A stretch of DNA of 14,590 nucleotides from a virus (lineage: Duplodnaviria; Heunggongvirae; Uroviricota; Caudoviricetes): positions 1-14,590 of the IMG/VR virus record IMGVR_UViG_2563366895_000002; one strand, given 5' to 3'. This document shows positions 2,634 through 14,590 of the stretch, in pieces (within the stretch, counting starts at the first letter, position 1; every line of letters starts with the position of its first letter). The notes beneath the pieces were generated by a model, which searched no databases, had not been told where the DNA came from, and worked only from the letters and a program-made list of their open reading frames with translations. The position numbers were made by a program, and so were the translations under genes.

Positions 2634-4160
2634 ATGAAAAAAGCCATAGCATATATGCGATTTTCATCACCAGGTCAGATGTCTGGCGACTCATTAAACC
2701 GACAGAGAAGACTTATTGCTGAATGGTTAAAGGTAAATAGTGATTATTATCTTGATACCATAACATATGAAGATTTAGGATTAAGTGCATTCAAAGGAAA
2801 GCATGCACAATCAGGAGCTTTTTCGGAATTTTTAGATGCTATAGAGCATGGTTATATATTGCCAGGAACTACATTGTTAGTTGAAAGTCTGGACAGACTT
2901 TCAAGAGAAAAAGTCGGTGAAGCGATTGAGCGTCTGAAATTGATTTTGAATCACGGTATTGATGTTATAACTCTTTGCGATAATACAGTCTATAATATTG
3001 ACTCTTTGAATGATCCATATTCATTAATAAAAGCCATACTTATAGCACAAAGGGCAAATGAAGAAAGCGAGATAAAGTCAAGTCGGGTTAAATTATCATG
3101 GAAGAAAAAACGGCAGGATGCACTGGAGTCAGGCACGATTATGACGGCGTCTTGTCCGAGATGGCTCTCCTTAGATGACAAAAGAACGGCTTTTGTTCCA
3201 GACCCCGACAGGGTGAAAACTATTGAGCTAATTTTTAAACTCAGGATGGAAAGGCGCTCATTGAATGCAATAGCCAAGTATTTAAATGATCATGCTGTAA
3301 AGAATTTCTCAGGAAAAGAAAGTGCATGGGGACCTTCTGTAATTGAAAAATTATTAGCGAATAAAGCTCTGATAGGTATATGCGTACCTTCATATCGTGC
3401 AAGAGGTAAAGGAATAAGTGAAATCGCTGGCTATTATCCCAGAGTCATATCAGATGATTTGTTTTACGCTGTGCAGGAAATTCGGTTGGCACCTTTTGGT
3501 ATTAGCAATAGTAGCAAAAACCCTATGTTGATAAATCTACTTCGAACAGTTATGAAGTGCGAGGCTTGTGGTAATACCATGATTGTTCATGCGGTATCTG
3601 GAAGTTTGCATGGCTATTATGTTTGTCCGATGAGAAGACTGCATCGATGTGACAGGCCATCAATAAAGAGAGATTTGGTTGATTATAATATCATTAATGA
3701 GTTGCTTTTTAATTGTAGTAAAATCCAACCAGTTGAAAACAAGAAAGATGCTAATGAAACTTTAGAGTTGAAAATTATTGAGCTCCAGATGAAAATTAAT
3801 AATTTAATTGCTGCATTATCTGTTGCGCCTGAAGTTACCGCTATAGCAGAAAAAATCAGAGTATTAGATAAGGAATTACGAAGGGCTTCTGTATCATTAA
3901 AAACTTTGAAGAGTAAAGCGGTGAGCTCACTTGGTGATTTTCATGCTATTGACTTAACCAGTAAAAATGGGCGAGAGCTATGTCGTACACTTGCCTATAA
4001 AACATTCGAAAAAATCATAATCAATACAGATAATAAAACCTGTGATATCTATTTTATGAATGGCATTGTTTTTAAACACTATCCTTTAATGAAAACAATA
4101 TCCGCCCAGCAGGCGATAAGTACTCTCAAATATATGGTTGATGGTGAGGTTTATTTTTGA
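2634..4160 (+). CDS. ybcK: Large serine recombinase (resolvase/invertase-type N-terminal domain), YbcK-like, 508 aa
   Basis: N-terminal YMRFSSPGQ motif with the presumptive catalytic Ser; a Cys-rich segment (CEACGN...CPMRRLHRC) typical of large serine recombinases. Matches DLP12 YbcK by length and sequence from memory. ATG at 2634 with AGGTG 6 nt upstream. Gene is visibly AT-rich. Confidence 0.85.
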   Translation: MKKAIAYMRFSSPGQMSGDSLNRQRRLIAEWLKVNSDYYLDTITYEDLGLSAFKGKHAQSGAFSEFLDAIEHGYILPGTTLLVESLDRLSREKVGEAIERLKLILNHGIDVITLCDNTVYNIDSLNDPYSLIKAILIAQRANEESEIKSSRVKLSWKKKRQDALESGTIMTASCPRWLSLDDKRTAFVPDPDRVKTIELIFKLRMERRSLNAIAKYLNDHAVKNFSGKESAWGPSVIEKLLANKALIGICVPSYRARGKGISEIAGYYPRVISDDLFYAVQEIRLAPFGISNSSKNPMLINLLRTVMKCEACGNTMIVHAVSGSLHGYYVCPMRRLHRCDRPSIKRDLVDYNIINELLFNCSKIQPVENKKDANETLELKIIELQMKINNLIAALSVAPEVTAIAEKIRVLDKELRRASVSLKTLKSKAVSSLGDFHAIDLTSKNGRELCRTLAYKTFEKIIINTDNKTCDIYFMNGIVFKHYPLMKTISAQQAISTLKYMVDGEVYF

Positions 4161-4793: not shown

Positions 4794-5723
4794 ATGGCAC
4801 AACAGAGAACTACCTCCCTCAGATCCATACCTTTAGACTTAGATGTTAAGCAAGAGGCTGTCATTAACGGTATAGAAATGGGGGTACTCGATAACGGAAT
4901 TCCGTACCTTACTCAGAATGGGTTGGCAAATGTTTGTGGTGTTCAGCGTTTGCGAATCAAGGAAATTACCGATGAGTGGGCTCAATCCGTTGAGAACGGT
5001 ATTTTCAAAAAAGGAAGAATGACTTTTATTGGTACATATCTTCTTAATGAAGGTTTTACAGATGAAAAACTTTATATACCAATAATTCGAAATGGTGTTG
5101 AGTACCATGCTTATCCAGATGTTGTATGCATGGCTATACTTGAATACTATGCCTTTGAAGCAAAACAAGCAGAAAGTGAGACTGCAATTAGATCTTACAG
5201 AGAGCTTGCTAAAAAAGGCCTCAAGACATTTATATACGAGGCGCTAAAATATCAACCGGAGGACCCGTGGAGGCATTACCATGACAGAGTATCTTTATTA
5301 AAAGATAAGGGAACCATACCTGATGGGTATTTCATTATATTTAATGAAATTGCAGGTATGATGGTAGATCTCATCAATGCTGGATTAGCGATTAATCAGC
5401 ATACCGTACCTGATGGCAGTGTTGGTTCTTGCTGGGCGCGTCACTGGAAAGCAAAGGGGTTAGCAACAGAATTTGGAGAAAGAGTAGACTGTGAGCATTA
5501 TTACCCTGAAGATTTTCTTCAGGCAAGTTCCAATCCTCAGATCATTAATGCCTATCCTGATTCTGCATTGTCAGAGTTTCGTAGATGGTTTAAGCATGAA
5601 TATTTAACCACAAAGTTCCCACCGTATATTCTTAAAAAATCAAACGTGCTTCCTGGTGGTACAGAAGATGCTAATCGTCTGATAGAAGCTTTCAAAAAAT
5701 CAGAGCTAGAAAATAAACCATAA
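4794..5723 (+). CDS. Hypothetical protein, 309 aa, unknown function; candidate prophage cargo or defence protein
   Basis: ATG at 4794 preceded by AGGA at 4784-4787 (the track's 4779 start is an upstream TTG). Long clean ORF, visibly AT-rich, no transmembrane or signal sequence evident. N-terminal segment (GIEMGVLDNGIPYLTQNGLANVCGVQRLRIKEITDEW) is loosely reminiscent of KilA-N/Bro-N DNA-binding domains; this is unverified. Confidence 0.6.
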   Translation: MAQQRTTSLRSIPLDLDVKQEAVINGIEMGVLDNGIPYLTQNGLANVCGVQRLRIKEITDEWAQSVENGIFKKGRMTFIGTYLLNEGFTDEKLYIPIIRNGVEYHAYPDVVCMAILEYYAFEAKQAESETAIRSYRELAKKGLKTFIYEALKYQPEDPWRHYHDRVSLLKDKGTIPDGYFIIFNEIAGMMVDLINAGLAINQHTVPDGSVGSCWARHWKAKGLATEFGERVDCEHYYPEDFLQASSNPQIINAYPDSALSEFRRWFKHEYLTTKFPPYILKKSNVLPGGTEDANRLIEAFKKSELENKP

Positions 5724-5821
5724 TTGTTTTTTGGCTTTTGATTTTACATAATCATTTTGCCATAATCATGTCATCGGAGCCTGAACAACTCCGGTGACTT
5801 CTGCGCTAAACGGGGACGTTT

Positions 5822-5923
5822 ATGCGCACATACAATCCAAACTCTCTTCTCCCTTCACAGATGCAGAGATGCACCTGCGATTTTTTGCATCCAGCGTTTG
5901 ACCTCTGCGGAGGTGAAGCGTGA
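5822..5923 (+). CDS. ylcH: Small protein YlcH-like, 33 aa
   Basis: [36 protein letters not shown] whose stop overlaps the ybcN GTG start (GTGA); position and size match DLP12 ylcH from memory. Confidence 0.45.
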
Positions 5924-6375
5924 ATCTCCCACAAGATGGCATCAAATTACATCGCGGTAACTTCACCGCTATCGGTCGGCAGATCCAGCCTTATCTGGAG
6001 GAGGGCAAATGCTTTCGCATGGTGCTTAAACCGTGGCGTGAGAAACGCAGTCTTTCCCAGAATGCACTCAGCCACATGTGGTACAGCGAAATCAGTGAAT
6101 ACCTCATCAACAGGGGTAAAACGTTCGCCACTCCAGCTTGGGTAAAAGATGCTCTCAAACACACATATCTCGGTTATGAAACCAAAGACCTGGTTGATGT
6201 CGTAACCGGTGATATCACCACTATCCAGTCGTTACGCCATACCTCCGATCTTGATACCGGAGAGATGTATGTCTTCCTGTGTAAGGTTGAAGCCTGGGCG
6301 GTGAATATTGGCTGCCACCTGACTATTCCGCAGAGCTGCGAGTTCCAGCTGCTCCGTGACAAGCAGGAGGCGTAA
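5920..6375 (+). CDS. ybcN: YbcN, NinB/Orf-like DNA-binding protein, 151 aa
   Basis: GTG start at 5920 with GGAGG upstream; translation matches DLP12 YbcN from memory. Confidence 0.85.
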
Positions 6376-6545
6376 TGGCTACACCGCTTATTCGTGTCAT
6401 GAACGGACACATCTACAGAGTATCAAATCGTCGTAAGCGTAAGCCTGAGCCGAAGCCATCCGAAATACCAACACTGCTCGGATATACCGCTAGCCTGGTT
6501 GATAAAAAATGGTTGCGACTGGCAGCAAGGAGGAATCATGGCTGA
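6375..6545 (+). CDS. ninE: NinE-like protein, 56 aa
   Basis: ATG overlaps the ybcN stop (TAATG); translation [56 protein letters not shown]. Below the track's length cutoff, found by reading the sequence. Confidence 0.75.
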   Translation: MATPLIRVMNGHIYRVSNRRKRKPEPKPSEIPTLLGYTASLVDKKWLRLAARRNHG

Positions 6546-6828
6546 TTTGAGAAAAGCAGCGCGTGGTCGGGAATGCCAGGTAAGAATCCCTGGCGTATGT
6601 AATGGCAATTCTGAAACGTCTGTACTGGCACATATCCGGCTGGCTGGATTGTGCGGTACCGGTATCAAACCGCCAGACCTGATTGCCACCATTGCATGTT
6701 CTGCCTGCCACGACGAAATCGACCGCCGCACACATTTTGTCGATGCTGCATATGCAAAAGAATGCGCGCTGGAAGGTATGGCGAGAACACAGGTTATTTG
6801 GCTGAAAGAGGGGGTTATTAAGGCGTGA
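6538..6828 (+). CDS. ybcO: YbcO, Cys/His-rich putative metal-binding nuclease-like protein, 96 aa
   Basis: ATG at 6538 overlapping the ninE 3' end; translation [24 protein letters not shown]...CSACHDEID matches YbcO from memory (the track's 6499 start is an upstream alternative). Confidence 0.8.
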
Positions 6829-7187
6829 ATACCTACAGCATCACATTACCCTGGCCTCCGAGCAATAATCGCTATTACCGCCATAATCGCGGGCGCACGC
6901 ACATCAGCGCAGAAGGGCAGGCATACCGCGATAACGTCACCCGAATCATTAAAAACGCAATGCTGGATATCGGCCTGGCTATGCCAGTGAAAATCCGTAT
7001 TGAGTGCCACATGCCGGATCGCCGTCGCCGTGACCTGGATAATCTGCAAAAAGCCGCTTTTGACGCACTCACCAAAGCAGGTTTCTGGCTGGATGATGCT
7101 CAGGTCGTTGATTACCGCGTTGTGAAGATGCCTGTTACCAAAGGTGGGAGGCTGGAACTGACCATCACCGAAATGGGGAATGAATGA
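6825..7187 (+). CDS. rusA: RusA Holliday junction resolvase, 120 aa
   Basis: GTG at 6825 overlapping the ybcO stop (GTGA); translation [36 protein letters not shown]... matches RusA from memory. Confidence 0.9.
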
Positions 7188-7324
7188 TGTTTGAGTTTTA
7201 TATGGCAGAACTTCTTCGCCACCGCTGGGGGCATCTGCGCTTATATCGTTTCCCCGGTTCTGTTTTGACCGATTACCGAATACTGAAGAATTACGCCAAA
7301 ACCCTGACAGGAGCAGGAGTATGA
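7184..7324 (+). CDS. ylcG: YlcG-like small protein, 46 aa
   Basis: ATG overlapping the rusA stop; translation [46 protein letters not shown]. Confidence 0.6.
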
Positions 7325-7409
7325 AGTCAGAGATAACAATCAACTAATACTGTTTTGTTGATTTTTGCTTGTAATTGGCGTTCTGGTCTGATTTTTGTGG
7401 AGTAAGTTG

Positions 7410-7793
7410 ATGCGTGATATTCAGATGGTTCTTGAGCGTTGGGGAGCGTGGGCGGCTAATAATCATGAAGATGTGACCTGGTCGTCCATTGCCGCCGGTT
7501 TTAAGGGATTAATTACTTCAAAAGTAAAATCTCGCCCGCAATGTTGTGACGATGACGCGATGATTATTTGCGGGTGCATGGCCCGTCTGAAAAAGAACAA
7601 CAGCGATTTGCACGATTTATTAGTAGATTATTATGTAGTCGGTATGACATTCATGTCACTGGCAGGTAAGCATTGCTGCTCTGATGGTTATATCGGGAAA
7701 AGGTTACAGAAGGCTGAGGGCATAATTGAAGGGATGTTAATGGCATTAGATATCCGGTTAGAGATGGATATCGTTGTTAATAACTCTAATTAA
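7410..7793 (+). CDS. quuD: Late-gene antiterminator Q homolog (QuuD), 127 aa
   Basis: ATG at 7410 (the track's 7395 start is an upstream TTG); translation [24 protein letters not shown]... with the Cys cluster [12 protein letters not shown]; sits immediately upstream of the hairpin cluster and lysis genes. Confidence 0.85.
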
Positions 7794-7810
7794 TATGCCA
7801 ATTGTTTACT

Positions 7811-7844
7811 AAAAATTATTAAAAATGGGGCGTTGAGACGCCCC
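7811..7844 (-). terminator. GC-rich hairpin GGGGCG-TTGAGA-CGCCCC with U-tract on the minus strand
   Basis: Stem 7827-7832 / 7839-7844; the + strand upstream is AAAAATTATTAAAAAT, which reads as a T-tract after the hairpin on the minus strand. Could terminate nmpC transcription or be part of the late promoter region; strand assignment is uncertain. Confidence 0.4.
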
Positions 7845-7883
7845 CAAAAATAAAGGGTAATATATAACAGAAGGTTTATATAG

Positions 7884-7972
7884 TTAGAAGCAAGGTTGTG
7901 CTTCTAAAGGAAGTGGCTTGAGGGAGCCACTTATATGTTGGGGAGGCAACGCCTCCCGCAACATATCTTTTT
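7884..7972 (+). terminator. Three consecutive hairpins downstream of quuD, the last followed by CTTTTT (tR'-like intrinsic terminator)
   Basis: Hairpins at 7884-7907 (TTAGAAGCA/TGCTTCTAA), 7911-7932 (AAGTGGCT/AGCCACTT) and 7933-7966 (ATATGTTGGGGAGGC/GCCTCCCGCAACATAT), then T-run 7967-7972. Position between Q and the lysis genes fits a lambdoid late leader/terminator. Confidence 0.5.
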
Positions 7973-7982
7973 CGTAATCAGA

Positions 7983-9080
7983 TTAGAACTGGTAAACCAG
8001 ACCTACAGCAACGATGTCATCAGTGCTTACACCGAGTGCTTTAGTGAAGTCATTTTTGTCAAGCAGGTTGATTTTGTAATCAACGAAAGTAGACATATTT
8101 TTGTTGAAGTAATAGGTTGCACCTACATCAACATATTTGACTAAGTCCTGATCGCCCCATACTCCAAGATCTTTACCTTTAGATTGCAGGTAAGCAACGG
8201 ACGGACGCAGACCGAAATCGAACTGATATTGTGCAACAGCTTCGAAGTTTTGGGCTTTATTAGCAACGAAGTGATCAGCAAATACAGTCATATTCTGGGT
8301 TTCAGAATAGGTAGTGGCCAGGTAAATGTTGTTAGCGTCATATTTCAGACCTGCGGCCCAAACTTCTGCATTTTTACCGGAAGCAAATACTTCAGGAAGA
8401 ACTTTCCCTGCATTAACTTGAGTGTCGGTACGATCAGATTTCGCATAAGTTGCACCGATACCGAATCCTTCGTATTCATAGGTAGCAGAGAAACCGAAGC
8501 CATCACCGTTACCTTCAGTGTAGTTATCGAAATCGCTACGATCGTTTTTGCCTTGGTACTGAGCAGCAAAGTTCAGACCATCAACCAGACCAAAGAAGTC
8601 GTTGTTACGATAGGTTGCAACACCAGTGGTGCGACCAGTCATGAACACATCTGTTTGGGTCCAGGTATCGCCACCGAATTCTGGCAGAACGTCAGTCCAC
8701 GCACCGATGTCGTATGCTACACCGTAGTTACGGCCGTAATCGATTGAGCCGTAGTCACCGAATTTCAGGCCTGCAAATGCAAGACGGGTTTTGTCTTTGG
8801 AGGAACCTTGAGATTCAGCGCGGTTGCCTTTGAATTCATATTCCCACTGACCGAAACCAGTCAGTTGATCGTTGATTTGGGTTTCACCTTTGAAGCCAAG
8901 ACGGGCATAAGTAGTATCACCATCATCTGCATCATTAGAGGAGAAGTAGTGCTTGGCATTAACTTTCCCGTACAGATCCAGCTTGTTACTGTCTTTATTA
9001 TAAATTTCAGCTGCCTGAGCAGACATCGCCATCAGTACTGATGCAGCTACAGCAGAAATTGCCACTGTTAATTTTTTCAT
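7983..9080 (-). CDS. nmpC: Outer membrane porin NmpC (OmpC/OmpD family), intact 365 aa with signal peptide
   Basis: Translation begins [29 protein letters not shown] and ends with the porin C-terminal ...VAVGLVYQF; full length with no interruption. Confidence 0.9.
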
Positions 9081-9668
9081 CGTGAGCCCTTTTTTTTGAA
9101 CTATTATTAAAAAATGATGTCACTGCGCGATAAATATTCATCTAATCAATGTGATTATTTCAAGATGTAAGTTTTAGTTTCTCATTTAATTTGTGAAGTA
9201 GATCTCTATTTTTATCTGAACTTTTTCTATCGAAACCTATTTATGGCTCTTATTTGAACAAAAATAAACCTATTAGCTAATTTATATTAATGGTTGTTAT
9301 TTATGGAGGTTCTATAATTCGGCAGTTTAATTTAAATCAACTAAAAATAACGTCTGAAATTATTTATTGGTTATTTGTTGAGGTTTTCTTATGTATTTGT
9401 GGTGGTGTTTTGAACACTCGGTAGCATTCTCATAAATATCATTCAGTGGTTTACGTACGTAAAAAATTGGTTATGCTGTTAAGAGTGGTTACTTCGTCAC
9501 ACAGCTTAAACCCGCCGTCGAGCTGGTTTTTCCATTTTTTGAGTCTCGATATTAGCTGATAACTCAATACCTGAGTTATTCACTGACTCCGAGTCTGTTA
9601 CGTTTCTGCTTTTTTGCGATACGTTGTATTCCCTCAATTTACACCCGCTTTGTCTGCGAGGTGGGGTT

Positions 9669-9884
9669 ATGAAATCCATGGATAAGTTAACAACGGGTGT
9701 CGCCTATGGCACCTCAGCAGGTAGTGCCGGTTACTGGTTTTTACAGCTGCTCGATAAAGTCACGCCCTCACAGTGGGCAGCAATAGGTGTGCTGGGTAGC
9801 CTGGTATTTGGCCTGCTGACGTACCTGACAAACCTTTATTTCAAGATTAAAGAAGATAAGCGCAAGGCTGCGAGAGGTGAATAA
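9669..9884 (+). CDS. essD: Pinholin (phage 21 S-type), 71 aa, with MKSM dual-start motif
   Basis: Translation [71 protein letters not shown]; ATG at 9669 (the track's 9624 start is an upstream alternative); stop overlaps the rrrD start (TAATG). Confidence 0.8.
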
Positions 9885-10381
9885 TGCCTCCATCATTACG
9901 AAAAGCCGTTGCTGCTGCTATTGGTGGCGGAGCAATTGCTATAGCATCAGTGTTAATTACTGGCCCAAGTGGTAACGATGGTCTGGAAGGTGTCAGCTAC
10001 ATACCATACAAAGATATTGTTGGTGTATGGACTGTATGTCACGGGCATACAGGAAAAGACATCATGCTCGGTAAAACGTATACCAAAGCAGAATGCAAAG
10101 CCCTCCTGAATAAAGACCTTGCCACGGTCGCCAGACAAATTAACCCGTACATCAAAGTCGATATACCGGAAACAATGCGCGGCGCTCTTTACTCATTCGT
10201 TTACAACGTGGGTGCTGGCAATTTCAGAACATCGACGCTTCTTCGCAAAATAAACCAGGGCGATATCAAAGGCGCATGTGATCAGCTACGTCGCTGGACA
10301 TATGCTGGCGGTAAGCAATGGAAAGGTCTCATGACTCGTCGTGAGATTGAGCGTGAAATCTGTTTGTGGGGTCAGCAATGA
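9884..10381 (+). CDS. rrrD: SAR endolysin (lysozyme), 165 aa
   Basis: N-terminal Gly/Ala-rich signal-anchor-release segment ([20 protein letters not shown]) followed by a lysozyme domain; matches RrrD from memory. Confidence 0.9.
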
Positions 10382-10839
10382 ACAGAGTAACCGCGATTAT
10401 CTCCGCTCTGGTTATCTGCATCATCGTCGGCCTGTCATGGGCTGTTAATCATTACCGTGATAACGCCATTACCTACAAAGCCCAGCGCGACAAAAATGCC
10501 AGAGAACTGAAGCTGGCGAACGCGGCAATTACTGACATGCAGATGCGTCAGCGTGATGTTGCTGCGCTCGATGCAAAATACACGAAGGAGTTAGCTGATG
10601 CGAAAGCTGAAAATGATGCTCTGCGTGATGATGTTGCCGCTGGTCGTCGTCGGTTGCACATCAAAGCAGTCTGTCAGTCAGTGCGTGAAGCCACCACCGC
10701 CTCCGGCGTGGATAATGCAGCCTCCCCCCGACTGGCAGACACCGCTGAACGGGATTATTTCACCCTCAGAGAGAGGCTGATCACTATGCAAAAACAACTG
10801 GAAGGAGCCCAGAAGTATATTAATGAGCAGTGCAGATAG
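10378..10839 (+). CDS. rzpD: Rz-like spanin (inner-membrane subunit), 153 aa
   Basis: ATG at 10378 overlapping the rrrD stop; N-terminal transmembrane helix and coiled-coil-like Ala/Asp/Arg-rich region. Confidence 0.85.
10598..10780 (+). CDS. rzoD: Rz1-like outer-membrane lipoprotein spanin subunit, 60 aa, embedded in rzpD in another frame
   Basis: ATG at 10598 with GGAG upstream; lipobox LVVVGC; proline-rich (PPPPPAW...PPPDW); lies entirely within rzpD. Confidence 0.8.
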
Positions 10840-10870
10840 AGCTGCCCATATCGATGGGCAACTCATGCAA

Positions 10871-11164
10871 TTATTGTGAGCAATACACACGCGCTTCCAG
10901 CGGAGTATAAATGCCTAAAGTAATAAAACCGAGCAATCCATTTACGAATGTTTGCTGGGTTTCTGTTTTAACAACATTTTCTGCGCCGCCACAAATTTTG
11001 GCTGCATCAACAGTTTTCTCCTGTCCAATTCCCGAAACGAAGAAGTGATGGGTGATGGTTTCCTTTGGTGTTACTGCTGTCGGTTTGTTTCCAACAGTAA
11101 ACGTCTGTTGAGCACATCCTGTAATAAGCATTGCCAGAGCGGCAGAAAACAACATTTTTTTCAT
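10871..11164 (-). CDS. borD: Bor lipoprotein homolog (serum-resistance-associated), 97 aa
   Basis: Translation MKKMLFSAALAMLITGC... with lipobox LITGC; ATG at 11164 (the track's 11212 start is an upstream alternative). Confidence 0.85.
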   Translation of the reverse strand: MKKMLFSAALAMLITGCAQQTFTVGNKPTAVTPKETITHHFFVSGIGQEKTVDAAKICGGAENVVKTETQQTFVNGLLGFITLGIYTPLEARVYCSQ

Positions 11165-11523
11165 CTTATTATCCTGCATTGTTAAAAACGGCAGAATCCT
11201 ATGTGACAACAATTAAACGATAGTTAAATGGATTGATGAAAATTAAAACTATATAGGTGGATGCTCAGCCTATTGGAGGAGGGGGGCACTCAGAATCCTG
11301 TGGAATGAAATAAACCGCTCTTTCTGTCCATTACCCTTTTAGCTGCGCTGTATCGTCGCCGTATTCCCGCATTAACCATGACCGTAGCCCGACGGGGAAT
11401 TCCTTCTGCGTGAGTGTGCGGGAATAATCAAAAACGATGCACACCGGGTTTTACTGTGCTGACAGACGCAGGGTTACCCTCATAGTCGCTTTTCCGGTGC
11501 GATGGTGGAAGAAACCGGGATGT

Positions 11524-11718
11524 TTATTCATCATCACTTTGGATTGATGTATATGCTCTCTTTTCTGACGTTAGTCTCCGACGGCAGGCTTCAATGACCC
11601 AGGCTGAGAAATTCCCAGACCCTTTTTGCTCAAGAGCGATGTTAATTTGTTCAATCATTTGGTTAGGAAAGCGGATGTTGCGGGTTGTTGTTCTGCGGGT
11701 TCTGTTCTTAGTTGACAT
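11524..11718 (-). CDS. ylcI: Small ribbon-helix-helix-like protein (YlcI-like), 64 aa
   Basis: ATG at 11718; Arg-rich N-terminus followed by a predicted strand-helix-helix pattern (RNIRFPNQMIEQINIALEQKGSGNFSAWVIEACRRRL). Confidence 0.55.
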   Translation of the reverse strand: MSTKNRTRRTTTRNIRFPNQMIEQINIALEQKGSGNFSAWVIEACRRRLTSEKRAYTSIQSDDE

Positions 11719-11879
11719 GAGGTTGCCCCGTATTCAGTGTTGCTGATTTGTATTGTCTGAAGTTGTTTTTACGTTAAGTTGATGCAGATCAATTAATACG
11801 ATACCTGCGTCATAATTGATTATTTGACGTGGTTTGATGGCGTAGATGCACGTTGTGATATGTAGATGATAATTATTAT

Positions 11880-12106
11880 CATTTTTCGGGTCCTTTCCGG
11901 CGATCCGACAGGTTACGGGGCGGCGACCTCGCGGGTTTTCGCTATTTATGAAAATTTTCCGGTTTAAGGCGTTTCCGTTCTTCTTCGTCATAACTTAATG
12001 TTTTTATTTAAAATACCCTCTGAAAAGAAAGGAAACGACAGGTGCTGAAAGCGAGCTTTTTGGCCTCTGTCGTTTCCTTTCTCTGTTTTTGTCCGTGGAA
12101 TGAACA
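11880..12106 (+). other. Lambda-type cos site (cosQ, cosN 12-nt cohesive end at 11918-11929, cosB with Nu1 R-sites)
   Basis: Sequence ...CGGGTCCTTTCCGGCGATCCGACAGGTTACG/GGGCGGCGACCTCGCGGGTTTTCGCTATTTATGAAAATTTTCCGGTTTAAGGCGTTTCCGTTCTTCTTCG... is nearly identical to the lambda cos region as I remember it, continuing into the Nu1 start codon at 12107. Confidence 0.8.
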
Positions 12107-13327
12107 ATGGAAGTCAACAAAAAGCAGCTGGCTGATATTTTCGGTGCGAGTATCCGTACCATTCAGAACTGGCAGGAGCAGGGAATGCCCGTTCTGCGAG
12201 GCGGTGGCAAGGGTAATGAGGTGCTTTATGATTCTGCCGCCGTCATAAAATGGTATGCCGAAACCATGCCACAGGCGAGTTCTGTTGTTTCAATTACGTT
12301 GATTGGTGGCGCTGGATTTAACGTGGGGTCACCTCAACAGGCAGGTATATCTGAACTTGTTTTACGTGCAGGTAATGGTAATCCGAAGGGGATTACTGGT
12401 GCTTTATGGCAGCGCACATCGACAGGGTTTACAAATTTTGCCTGGGTCAATACATCTGGTGATACTTACGATATTTACGTTGCAATCGGAAATTATGCGA
12501 CTGGTGTAAATATTCAATGGGATTATACCAGTAATGCCAGCGTGACGATTCATACGTCACCAGCATATTCTGCTAATAAGCCGGAAGGGTTAACGGACGG
12601 TACAGTTTATTCACTCTATACGCCATCAGAGCAGTTTTATCCGCCTGGCGCACCAATCCCGTGGCCATCAGATACCGTTCCGTCTGGCTATGCCCTGATG
12701 CAGGGGCAGACTTTTGACAAATCTGCATACCCGAAACTTGCAGCCGCTTATCCGTCAGGCGTGATCCCTGATATGCGTGGCTGGACGATTAAGGGCAAAC
12801 CTGCCAGTGGTCGGGCCGTATTGTCTCAGGAACAGGACGGCATTAAATCGCATACCCACAGCGCCAGCGCATCCAGTACGGATTTGGGGACGAAAACCAC
12901 ATCGTCGTTTGATTACGGCACTAAATCCACGAATAACACTGGTGCGCATACCCATAGTTTAAGTGGCAGCACGAATGCAGCTGGTAATCACAGCCATAGA
13001 GATGGCCGTCGATTTAACCCCAGTGTTTTTAAAGATACTTATCAATATGGTTATACAAGCTCAGGTCAAAATACCTGGGGTGTACAAGGCTCAGTAGGTA
13101 TGTCTACGGGGTGGTTAGCGAATACCAGTACAGATGGTAATCATAGCCATTCACTGTCCGGCACAGCAGCATCTGCAGGTGCACACGCGCATACTGTCGG
13201 TATTGGTGCTCATACGCACTCCGTTGCGATTGGTTCACATGGACACACCATCACCGTTAACGCTGCTGGTAACGCGGAAAACACCGTCAAAAACATCGCA
13301 TTTAACTATATTGTGAGGCTTGCATAA
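12107..13327 (+). CDS. Chimeric ORF: terminase small subunit Nu1 N-terminus (aa 1-~52, winged-helix DNA-binding part) fused in frame to a side tail fibre C-terminal region (~354 aa) with HxH repeats
   Basis: First 52 residues [52 protein letters not shown] match lambda Nu1; after about 12264 the sequence switches to tail-fibre-like sequence ([48 protein letters not shown]...) with six HxH motifs (GAHTHS, GNHSHR, GNHSHS, GAHAHT, GAHTHS, GSHGHT). Confidence 0.8.
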
Positions 13328-13902
13328 TGGCATTCAGAATGAGTGAACAACCACGGACCATAAAAATTTATAATCTGCTGGCCGGAACTAATGAATTTAT
13401 TGGTGAAGGTGACGCATATATTCCGCCTCATACAGGTCTGCCAGCAAACAGTACCGATATTGCACCACCAGATATTCCTGCTGGCTTTGTGGCTGTTTTC
13501 AACAGTGATAAGGCATCGTGGCATCTCGTTGAAGACCATCGGGGTAAAACGGTTTATGACGTAGCGTCAGGGGACGCGTTATTTATTTCTGAACTCGGTC
13601 CGTTACCGGAAAATGTTACCTGGTTATCGCCGGAAGGGGAGTTTCAGAAGTGGAACGGCACAGCCTGGGTGAAAGATGCAGAAGCAGAAAAACTGTTCCG
13701 GATCCGAGAGGCGGAAGAAACAAAAAACAGCCTGATGCAGGTAGCCAGTGAGCATATTGCGCCACTTCAGGATGCTGTAGATCTGGAAATCGCAACGGAG
13801 GAAGAAACCTCATTGCTGGAAGCCTGGAAAAAGTATCGGGTGTTGCTGAACCGTGTTGATACGTCAACTGCACAGGATATTGAATGGCCAGCACTGCCGT
13901 AG
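13327..13902 (+). CDS. tfaR: Tail fibre assembly protein (Tfa; TfaR/TfaQ-like), 191 aa
   Basis: ATG overlaps the stop of the upstream fibre ORF (TAATG); translation [54 protein letters not shown]... matches Rac/Qin-type Tfa from memory. Confidence 0.9.
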
Positions 13903-13999
13903 GGTAAAACATATAAATTCTATAATTAGATGTATCTTTCCATTTACGGCAAGGAAGGGGGCTTGGAAGACGTAAAGCATCTCACACCGAGATTATTTT

Positions 14000-14590
14000 T
14001 TATATGTCAGGTGTCTGAAGTTTTGCTTTGGCTCTTAAAATGGTTTGCCGCGAGGTTTTGAATTCCCGGGCAATGGCACTTATACTTACACCTGACTTAA
14101 TTCGTTCGAATACCACCTGTTTCTGTTCTTCATTTAACACAGGTGGTCGACCAAAACGTTTCCCTGCGCCGCGGGCTCTTACTATCCCGGAATGAGTGCG
14201 TTCAAGTAAAAGGTCTCGTTCAAATTCAGCGACTGCTGAAATTACGTGCATCATCATTTTTCCTGTTGGACTGGTCAGGTCAATGCCCCCCAATGCTAAG
14301 CAATGCACTCTGATACCTGTTTCGGTCAGTTGTTCCACTGTTTTCCTGATATCCATTGCATTACAACCAAGGCGATCCAGTTTTGTCACAATCAATTGAT
14401 CACCACATTTCAGGCGAGCAAGCAACCGGTTAAAACCAGGACGCTCACTGGTTGCTGCTGAGCCGCTAATGTGTTCTTCGATTATTTGCTGAGGTTTGAT
14501 TTTAAAACCTGCACTTTCGATTTCCCTGCGTTGATTTTCGATGGTCTGATCCAGCGTTGATATCCGACAGTAAGCAAAAATTCGAGACAT
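14000..14590 (-). CDS. pinR: Serine DNA invertase of the Pin/Gin/Hin/Cin family, complete 196 aa
   Basis: Start codon at the window edge (14588-14590); N-terminal catalytic motif [10 protein letters not shown] with the active-site Ser, and a C-terminal HTH ([22 protein letters not shown]). Closest to PinR/PinQ from memory. Confidence 0.9.

Follow-up and report, generated by a model that had tools for sequence, protein, structure and literature searches.

The DNA analyzed here (the window) is the 14,590-nt stretch of IMG/VR record IMGVR_UViG_2563366895_000002, which represents a DLP12-type cryptic prophage of Escherichia coli with the gene order intD, ybcK, ... quuD, a porin gene, essD-rrrD-rzpD, iss/bor, ylcI, a truncated packaging/tail-fibre remnant and pin. 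The last of these, a PinQ/PinR-type small serine recombinase gene whose ATG start codon forms the last three bases of the window, is the subject of this report. An earlier note on this sequence had taken pin for a Pin/Hin-type invertase gene, complete and convergent with the tail-fibre assembly gene tfa, and had found no invertible segment to go with it. The analysis described below indicates that pin is very probably the tnpR resolvase gene of an 834-bp decayed and transposase-less mini-element of the Tn3 family (TIME-RES type), and not a Hin/Gin/Cin/Pin-type invertase with a lost or hidden segment. The locus was followed to the right in E. coli WL164 (NZ_CP128642.1), which is a valid extension of the window because the two are 100% identical over 11200–14590 (with two base differences over 5200–14590). 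Positions in the 17.4-kb WL164 locus, referred to as L001, are converted to window positions by adding 5199. The 3 kb to the right of the window contain ydfK, ynfT, a methyltransferase gene and a fragment of tfa in direct orientation. Coordinates of the relevant features are collected in Table 1.

The completeness of pin and its convergence with tfa are both borne out, with an entire Resolvase catalytic domain (amino acids (aa) 4–144, E = 2.5e-36), an HTH_7 domain at aa 147–190, and 97 bp separating its stop codon from that of tfa. Pin shares 98% identity with PinQ of strain K-12 and 38% with the true invertase PinE. In a comparison with proteins of solved structure, Pin scored 106 bits against Gin (its best match) and 84 bits against gamma-delta resolvase, vs. 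a full-length score of 312 bits for PinE against Gin; because of this difference, Pin is placed outside the tight Hin/Gin/Cin/Pin invertase family. An alignment of 12 homologues that includes PinE revealed a recognition helix conserved through the resolvase clade of Pin relatives and dissimilar to that of PinE (VGVSTLYKRF). Ser11 is the presumed catalytic residue, as judged from established knowledge of serine recombinases. Relative to K-12 PinQ, the WL164 copy carries four non-synonymous changes (Q3R, T17I, Q115H, A159V) and one synonymous change, which are too few for a test and would be compatible with relaxed constraint in this cryptic copy. A scan for promoters and terminators around pin was uninformative.

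The nearest relatives of Pin are resolvases of Tn3-family transposons, and the invertase premise of the earlier note was not upheld. In a homologue scan covering one genome per species, proteins with 61–79% identity to Pin were found as TnpR genes divergent from ORFs (open reading frames) containing DUF4158, the N-terminal domain of Tn3-family transposases, in Photorhabdus, in a metagenome-assembled genome of Oxalobacteraceae and in Parasedimentitalea. Closer still is a TnpR present on many E. coli plasmids, with 82–83% identity to Pin in the alignment (83–84.5% by tblastn). On pECOED (NC_011754), this homologue is divergent from a 572-aa Tn3-type tnpA truncated by IS600, and on pUTME-13 (NZ_CP157094) the whole unit spans 3791 bp between 38-bp inverted repeats (IRs). 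These plasmid units are ordinary minimal Tn3-family transposons of the form IR-tnpA-res-tnpR-IR. No tnpA was found in the window or its extension. As to the parent transposon, the IR and the TnpA N-terminus appear similar to those of the Tn21 group.

Two further arrangements were encountered among these relatives. In Erwinia oleae (locus L017, 1268–2652), two pin/tnpR paralogues are placed head to head with 566-nt arms that are 74% complementary, and the intergenic region they share is a long palindrome with two mirrored res-like sites, an unusual layout for resolvase genes. In Photorhabdus cinerea (locus L015, 4770–5379), a tnpR homologue is interrupted near codon 160 by a 38-bp IR, perfect in sequence, that belongs to the same transposon family, and the 5.4-kb contig has 127-bp perfect inverted copies at both bounds, which suggests that one transposon copy inserted into the resolvase gene of another.

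Direct comparison of prophage and plasmid transposon DNA reveals homology that runs through pin and continues for 39–45 nt past its stop codon. In a gapped alignment, this homology ends at the outer CCCC of the plasmid transposon IR, and two of the plasmids diverge from each other immediately after the same CCCC. The family IR, GGGGTCCGCTTGGAAAACGGAAAATATCCTACGCTAAG, bounds the intact relatives. A decayed copy (IRR, the right IR) is located 8 bp from the pin stop codon and constitutes the best match to the family IR in the whole window; a second decayed copy (IRL, the left IR) is present in inverted orientation 49 bp beyond the res-like region upstream of pin. The outer end of each remnant abuts one copy of AGGAA, and a 5-bp target duplication is a signature of Tn3-family transposition. 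The unit observed between the duplicated AGGAA copies consists of IR, 8 bp, tnpR (pin), res, 49 bp and IR, for a total of 834 bp and without a transposase gene.

The same anatomy recurs in other genomes. IR-like, res-like and AGGAA features were found in all nine lambdoid pin loci examined, the target duplication (TTCCT in pin orientation) being kept in eight loci besides that of the window: phages 2H10 and Turner, K-12 Qin, Shigella, E. ruysiae and three E. coli loci. When seven lambdoid loci were scanned with the family IR, the two remnants, inverted and flanking res-pin, ranked first and second in six of them; in E. ruysiae, the remaining one, they tied for first place. Potential target duplications of the plasmid elements (4/5 and 0/5 positions matching) were not used as evidence.

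Table 1. Features of the pin locus, in window coordinates unless marked L001 (the WL164 locus)
Feature	Position	Strand	Remarks
Nu1'-'stf in-frame fusion ORF	12107..13327	+	Phage_Nu1 at aa 1–53, followed by Collar and Phage_fiber domains
tfa (tail-fibre assembly)	13327..13902	+	Caudo_TAP, E = 3e-44; convergent with pin; outside the element
Left AGGAA of the 5-bp target-site duplication	13952..13956	.	abuts the outer end of the terminal IR
Decayed IRR, GGGGGCTTGGAAGACGTAAAGCATCTCACACCGAG	13957..13991	+	26/38 match, with one 3-nt gap, to the family IR; 8 bp from the pin stop codon
pin (PinQ/PinR-type small serine recombinase)	14000..14590	-	196 aa plus stop codon; Resolvase and HTH_7 domains
C-terminal helix-turn-helix (HTH) DNA-binding domain, coding region	14021..14152	-	aa 147–190, HTH_7; includes the gix-like motif at 14051–14062
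Ser11 codon (presumed catalytic serine)	14558..14560	-	YCRISTLDQ motif; invariant column in the 12-homologue alignment including PinE
res subsite III	L001 9402–9422		from alignment; subsites lie 11–114 bp past the window end; right half 13.0 bits (2H10 allele 13.0)
res subsite II	L001 9433–9464		from alignment; left/right halves 6.3/4.8 bits (2H10 allele 6.1/9.1)
res subsite I	L001 9479–9504		from alignment; left/right halves -1.0/7.9 bits (2H10 allele 4.4/7.9)
Decayed IRL	L001 9554–9591	inverted relative to IRR	25/38 match to the family IR; 49 bp beyond res site I
Right AGGAA of the target-site duplication	L001 9592–9596 (14791–14795 if the window continued)	.	abuts the other IR remnant

Alignment of the 175 nt upstream of the start codon across 15 loci showed that ~115 bp upstream of pin align with the tnpA-tnpR intergenic res of the Tn3-family relatives, with the same three subsites: a 26-bp dyad at site I (e.g., TGTCCGAAACCGAGCGATTTCGGACA), a 32-bp dyad at site II, a TATAAT/TATGAT box, and site III beside the ribosome-binding region. 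This three-subsite layout resembles the res of Tn3 and gamma-delta. The half-site consensus is TGTMCGAAA, and a half-site matrix recovered five half-sites at 12.4–15.5 bits within 100 bp in the plasmid res, which had been kept out of matrix building, vs. a single one of five scored half-sites above 8.5 bits in WL164. The lambdoid copies align base for base with their relatives, and their identity to the plasmid res falls from 82% at site III and the promoter region to 69% around site II and 45% around site I, as compared with 76–91% kept by the Photorhabdus res. By this measure, sites I and II of the lambdoid res appear eroded, with only the promoter-proximal half-site intact. Neither the window nor the extension showed another cluster of half-sites, leaving one res per prophage. 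A candidate second res upstream of ynfT (L001 10303–10323) was rejected, with only ~20 nt being similar; that sequence, GAGACTCTACACGGATTGGGT, is 81% identical to the site III/leader region upstream of pin (L001 9395–9415) and may reflect a shared leader or chance.

The Hin family is distinguished by two inverted 26-bp sites, each composed of 12-bp half-sites that end in AAACC and enclose a 2-bp core, which flank a segment next to or containing the recombinase gene. Further hallmarks are cassettes in opposite orientation (e.g., Sv/U and Sv'/U') and a Fis-bound recombinational enhancer in the 5' part of the recombinase gene. In agreement with the earlier note, no convincing gix-, hix- or pix-like site was detected in the window: neither AAACCNNGGTTT with up to one mismatch nor the e14 pix core with up to three mismatches yielded any match. 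A 26-bp position weight matrix (PWM) was built from Hin-family half-sites (e14 pix sites read from K-12, together with hix, gix and cix half-sites) and scored the two e14 pix sites at 30.5 and 27.7 bits as a control; its best hits were 9.4 bits in the window and 7.4 bits in the extension, while the best hits in window shuffles averaged 10.6 +/- 2.4 bits. Likewise, the PWM revealed no such site in 2H10, Turner or Qin. The weak resemblance that the earlier note had placed at 14051–14062 (CGAGGTTTTGAA) is indeed located there, at the 3' coding end of pin; scored as a 26-bp site, its halves reach -13.2 and 6.4 bits, which is below chance, and the motif represents codons for E-F-K-T-S-R in the conserved recognition helix of Pin.

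A search for inverted repeats in 11200–14590, L001 6300–11700 and phage 2H10 produced only short chance-level pairs; in 11200–14590 and the extension, these have 71–84% complementarity, in addition to one 13-nt perfect pair inside stf/tfa. An inverted second tfa or stf is absent from the window and the 3 kb beyond it, where the sole extra tfa fragment is in direct orientation and 2.8 kb away. The follow-up proposed in the earlier note, a rightward search for a 26-bp inverted-repeat pair, was run on these 3 kb of WL164 and returned no pair. Its suggestion that recombination sites lie beyond 14590 is right to the extent that a relic of a recombination site begins 11 bp past the end, but this relic is a single eroded three-subsite res of Tn3 type, and neither a 26-bp inverted pair nor an invertible segment accompanies it.

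Absence of an invertible segment is the norm for genes of the PinQ/PinR type, because intact phages with the same protein likewise have no second cassette. A 99–100% identical Pin is encoded by the live lambdoid phages 2H10 and Turner, and also by mEp460, Tritos and HannyBb (seen as protein hits only). In 2H10 and Turner, whose maps were read, the neighborhood comprises J-lom-stf-tfa, a convergent pin, ydfK-like genes and int, with no second tfa/stf cassette, inverted repeats or Hin-type sites in either phage. Among 5426 complete E. coli genomes, 2801 contain the region from the 5' end of pin through the upstream spacer to the end of ydfK; the res-pin-ydfK junction is covered at >=80% in 2757 of these 2801 holders (98%), and no recurrent rearrangement breakpoint was observed at this junction among them.

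The tail-fibre module of the window is a deletion remnant, fixed and dead and with no alternative cassette, because its stf is an in-frame Nu1'-'stf fusion; the earlier note had offered a fixed module as one of two alternatives, correctly on this point. The fusion joins 52 aa from the N-terminus of Nu1, the small terminase subunit, to a C-terminal part of stf of ~354 aa, with the junction at ~12262/12263. Many other E. coli genomes match the window up to exactly 12263, and among the 5426 genomes only WL164 matches across the junction. In strain KSC9, by contrast, nohD is complete and a terminase-A'(81 aa)-'stf fusion retains just 267 aa of stf, and the comparison means that two different deletions took out head and tail genes in otherwise near-identical prophages. 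A direct repeat (16/18) connects Nu1 at 12243–12260 (TCATAAAATGGTATGCCG), a copy that stops 3 nt before the Nu1'-'stf junction, with the 3' end of pin at 14033–14050 (TCTTAAAATGGTTTGCCG). A Pin-mediated deletion at such quasi-sites was considered and rejected, since the sequence after the junction is stf and not pin; with an estimate of ~0.1 chance pairs, the repeat is probably due to chance.

Several neighboring features can be recorded separately from the pin question. The extra tfa fragment of WL164 is a C-terminal one (L001 11307–11519, ~2.8 kb to the right of the window tfa) with 84% identity over 146 nt, and the two tfa copies bracket pin, ydfK, ynfT and a gene for a class I SAM (S-adenosylmethionine)-dependent methyltransferase. 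The DLP12 prophage of K-12 reads tfaD'-ybcY-tfaX' and is not known to carry pin, which suggests a deletion between tfa copies in K-12. A second serine recombinase ORF of 508 aa, at 2634–4160 (+), corresponds to ybcK ("recombinase family protein" in the annotation of matching genomes) and is unrelated to pin. Downstream of the lysis cassette, at 10871–11212 (-), is a gene for a lipoprotein of the Bor/Iss type (annotated as iss, for increased serum survival).

Several known systems can be compared with the window element. PinQ (b1545, Qin) and PinR (b1374, Rac) of K-12 have the same length of 196 aa, the same stf-tfa convergent with pin, and ydfK and ynfT upstream; their loci share the res-like region, the IR remnants and the target duplication, and the window copy differs by its location in a DLP12-type prophage and by four aa from PinQ. 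The 3.8-kb plasmid transposon of pUTME-13 and pECOED has an identical recognition-helix core, the same III-II-I order of res subsites upstream and an IR after the tnpR stop codon at the same 8-bp spacer, but also tnpA, near-perfect 38-bp IRs and consensus half-sites, whereas the window element lacks tnpA and shows erosion of its IRs and of res sites I and II. The closest described kind of element is TIME-RES (Szuplewska et al., 2014, PMC4133298), a non-autonomous Tn3-derived element that carries nothing but a resolvase gene and res and for which a 5-bp target duplication was reported. Like it, the window element combines Tn3-type terminal IRs, a resolvase gene and res with a 5-bp target duplication and no transposase. 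TIME-RES is 1186 bp long, resides on a Pseudomonas plasmid, derives from Tn5563, encodes a TnpR of 309 aa and has demonstrated mobility (PMC4133298), in contrast to the decayed 834-bp element with a 196-aa protein that is fixed in lambdoid phages; the decayed IRs would argue against its present mobility. With Hin, Gin, Cin and Pin of e14, the window Pin shares a small serine recombinase architecture (catalytic domain and C-terminal HTH) and a position beside tail-fibre genes, but not the 26-bp crossover sites, the inverted cassette or the recognition helix.

In the mechanism that we propose, the mini-element would have inserted by transposition into an ancestral lambdoid phage, in the interval from tfa to ydfK, and would now be a fixed part of that lineage, which includes Rac, Qin and DLP12-type prophages as well as live phages (e.g., 2H10 and Turner). 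Read in window orientation, it runs AGGAA, IRR remnant, 8 bp, pin (-) and, past the window end, res III, II and I, 49 bp, IRL remnant, AGGAA. The resolvase of intact relatives would bind upstream of its own gene, where three subsites hold six TGTMCGAAA half-sites; by extension from Tn3 and gamma-delta, it would act on a pair of res copies in direct repeat, recombining them at site I, and repress its own promoter. Because each prophage has a single eroded res, Pin would have no substrate in cis, and neither inversion nor deletion is expected next to pin. Present-day Pin would mainly bind the surviving promoter-proximal half-site (autoregulation), and any recombination by it would take place in trans, on an intact cognate res of a plasmid-borne relative in the same cell or on the P segment of e14.

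A number of observations weigh against this interpretation. Each IR remnant alone (24 of 38 ungapped for IRR, 23 of 38 for IRL) is only at the upper edge of the maxima from 200 shuffles of L001, in which the best match reached 23 in 14 shuffles, 24 in four and 25 in one, so that the case for the termini rests on position, orientation and target duplication. An unoccupied target, i.e., the flanks joined via one AGGAA, had no contiguous match among the 5426 E. coli genomes or the phages searched, and the insertion is inferred rather than seen. The erosion of res is judged by the consensus of relatives; real res subsites can be degenerate, and the lambdoid res might still work. The best match of Pin among solved structures is an invertase, Gin, and sequence by itself does not put Pin among the resolvases. 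Finally, the reported behavior of PinQ in vivo is invertase-like, in that its overproduction raises inversion of the e14 P segment (PMC12529663).

The last point is the basis of an alternative that we consider possible, if on balance unlikely, in which pin is an orphan invertase that acts in trans on Hin-type segments elsewhere, specifically the e14 P segment, yielding a chimeric StfE2 that blocks T2 adsorption. According to Kirigo et al. (PMC12529663), overproduction of PinQ lifts P-segment inversion from ~30% to 88%, deletion of pinQ cuts both inversion and survival after T2 infection, and inversion yields StfE2, which blocks T2 adsorption. The 98% identity between Pin and PinQ speaks for the same activity in the window copy, and an activity of this kind is compatible with a transposon origin of the gene. 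On the other hand, the evidence reported is in vivo only, with no in vitro or binding assay and no catalytic-serine mutant, and a pinE deletion mutant has its P segment locked despite intact pinQ and pinR (PMC12529663), although this lock could also reflect loss of an enhancer inside pinE. In addition, the recognition helix of Pin matches those of resolvases with TGTMCGAAA half-sites, unlike that of PinE, and the pix half-site TTCTCCCAAACC shows no resemblance to these. In WL164, icd adjoins iraM, indicating no e14 at its usual site, the only locus looked at. The proposal of the earlier note that pin is an orphan able to act in trans stands as regards the orphan; for PinQ, trans action has published support that is indirect and in vivo only, and WL164 has no e14 at icd. 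We give almost no credence to the other invertase-based explanation, a classical cis-acting tail-fibre invertase with its segment and 26-bp inverted sites just outside the window or missed around stf-tfa. The position of pin next to tail-fibre genes, as for gin, cin and e14 pin, and the name DNA invertase given to homologues in phage records (by annotation habit) speak for it, but neither crossover-like sites nor inverted repeats turned up in the window, the 3 kb to its right, 2H10 or Turner, the tfa-pin gap is only 97 bp, there is no inverted second tfa/stf, and BLAST detected no inversions in Qin or Rac (PMC12529663).

Two further explanations concern what, if anything, has preserved the gene since the proposed insertion of the mini-element. 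That pin is a functionless hitch-hiker, its ORF intact only through recent spread of the phage lineage, is in our estimate doubtful. Such a history would fit the decay of res and both IRs, the four non-synonymous changes and one synonymous change between WL164 pin and PinQ, and the 88.8% identity of the res region between the 2H10 and WL164 alleles, which is like the 88.5% of the neutral-looking sequence further upstream. Against it, the pin ORF is 99.2% identical between these same alleles, whose upstream regions differ by 11%, and it is full length in cryptic prophages stripped of most other genes (Rac, Qin and the DLP12 of the window). The junction region including the 5' end of pin is present in 2801 of 5426 genomes, and deletion phenotypes have been reported (PMC12529663). 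The ratio of non-synonymous to synonymous substitution rates (dN/dS) vs. plasmid tnpR is 0.13–0.15, although this purifying selection averages plasmid and phage lineages, with too few changes within lambdoid alleles to test, which also limits its weight for the resolvase interpretation as a whole. Rather unlikely, in our view, is the more specific proposal that the PinQ/PinR "invertases" are domesticated resolvases of the fossil Tn3-family mini-element, kept by lambdoid phages or their hosts for a job unrelated to tail-fibre switching, such as repressing or resolving a plasmid-borne transposon, or phage defence via non-cognate DNA. If this were true, inversion of the e14 P segment by PinQ would be indirect, or it would represent an unusual action of a resolvase-lineage enzyme at Hin-type sites, and the conserved DNA-binding helix should still recognize the res of the plasmid-borne transposon.

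Overall, the lack of invertible segments beside pinQ and pinR is accounted for by assigning such genes to tnpR of a fossil Tn3-type mini-element. Full-text searches of an incomplete library returned no paper on a Tn3, TnpR, resolvase or res origin of pinQ or pinR; the gene and the kind of element are already known, and what appears to be new is the recognition of pinQ/pinR-type genes as resolvases of a fossil TIME-RES-like element. Both genes are annotated as invertases in the reference strain K-12, and automatic annotation passes this name on to thousands of genes. The tnpR assignment predicts a DNA-binding specificity for TGTMCGAAA half-sites rather than pix or gix, and it makes it concretely testable whether PinQ itself inverts the e14 P segment in anti-phage defence, as has recently been claimed. 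PinQ/PinR-type genes occur in roughly half of the E. coli genomes sequenced, K-12 among them. The locus would also illustrate how a transposon module can become fixed in a phage lineage.

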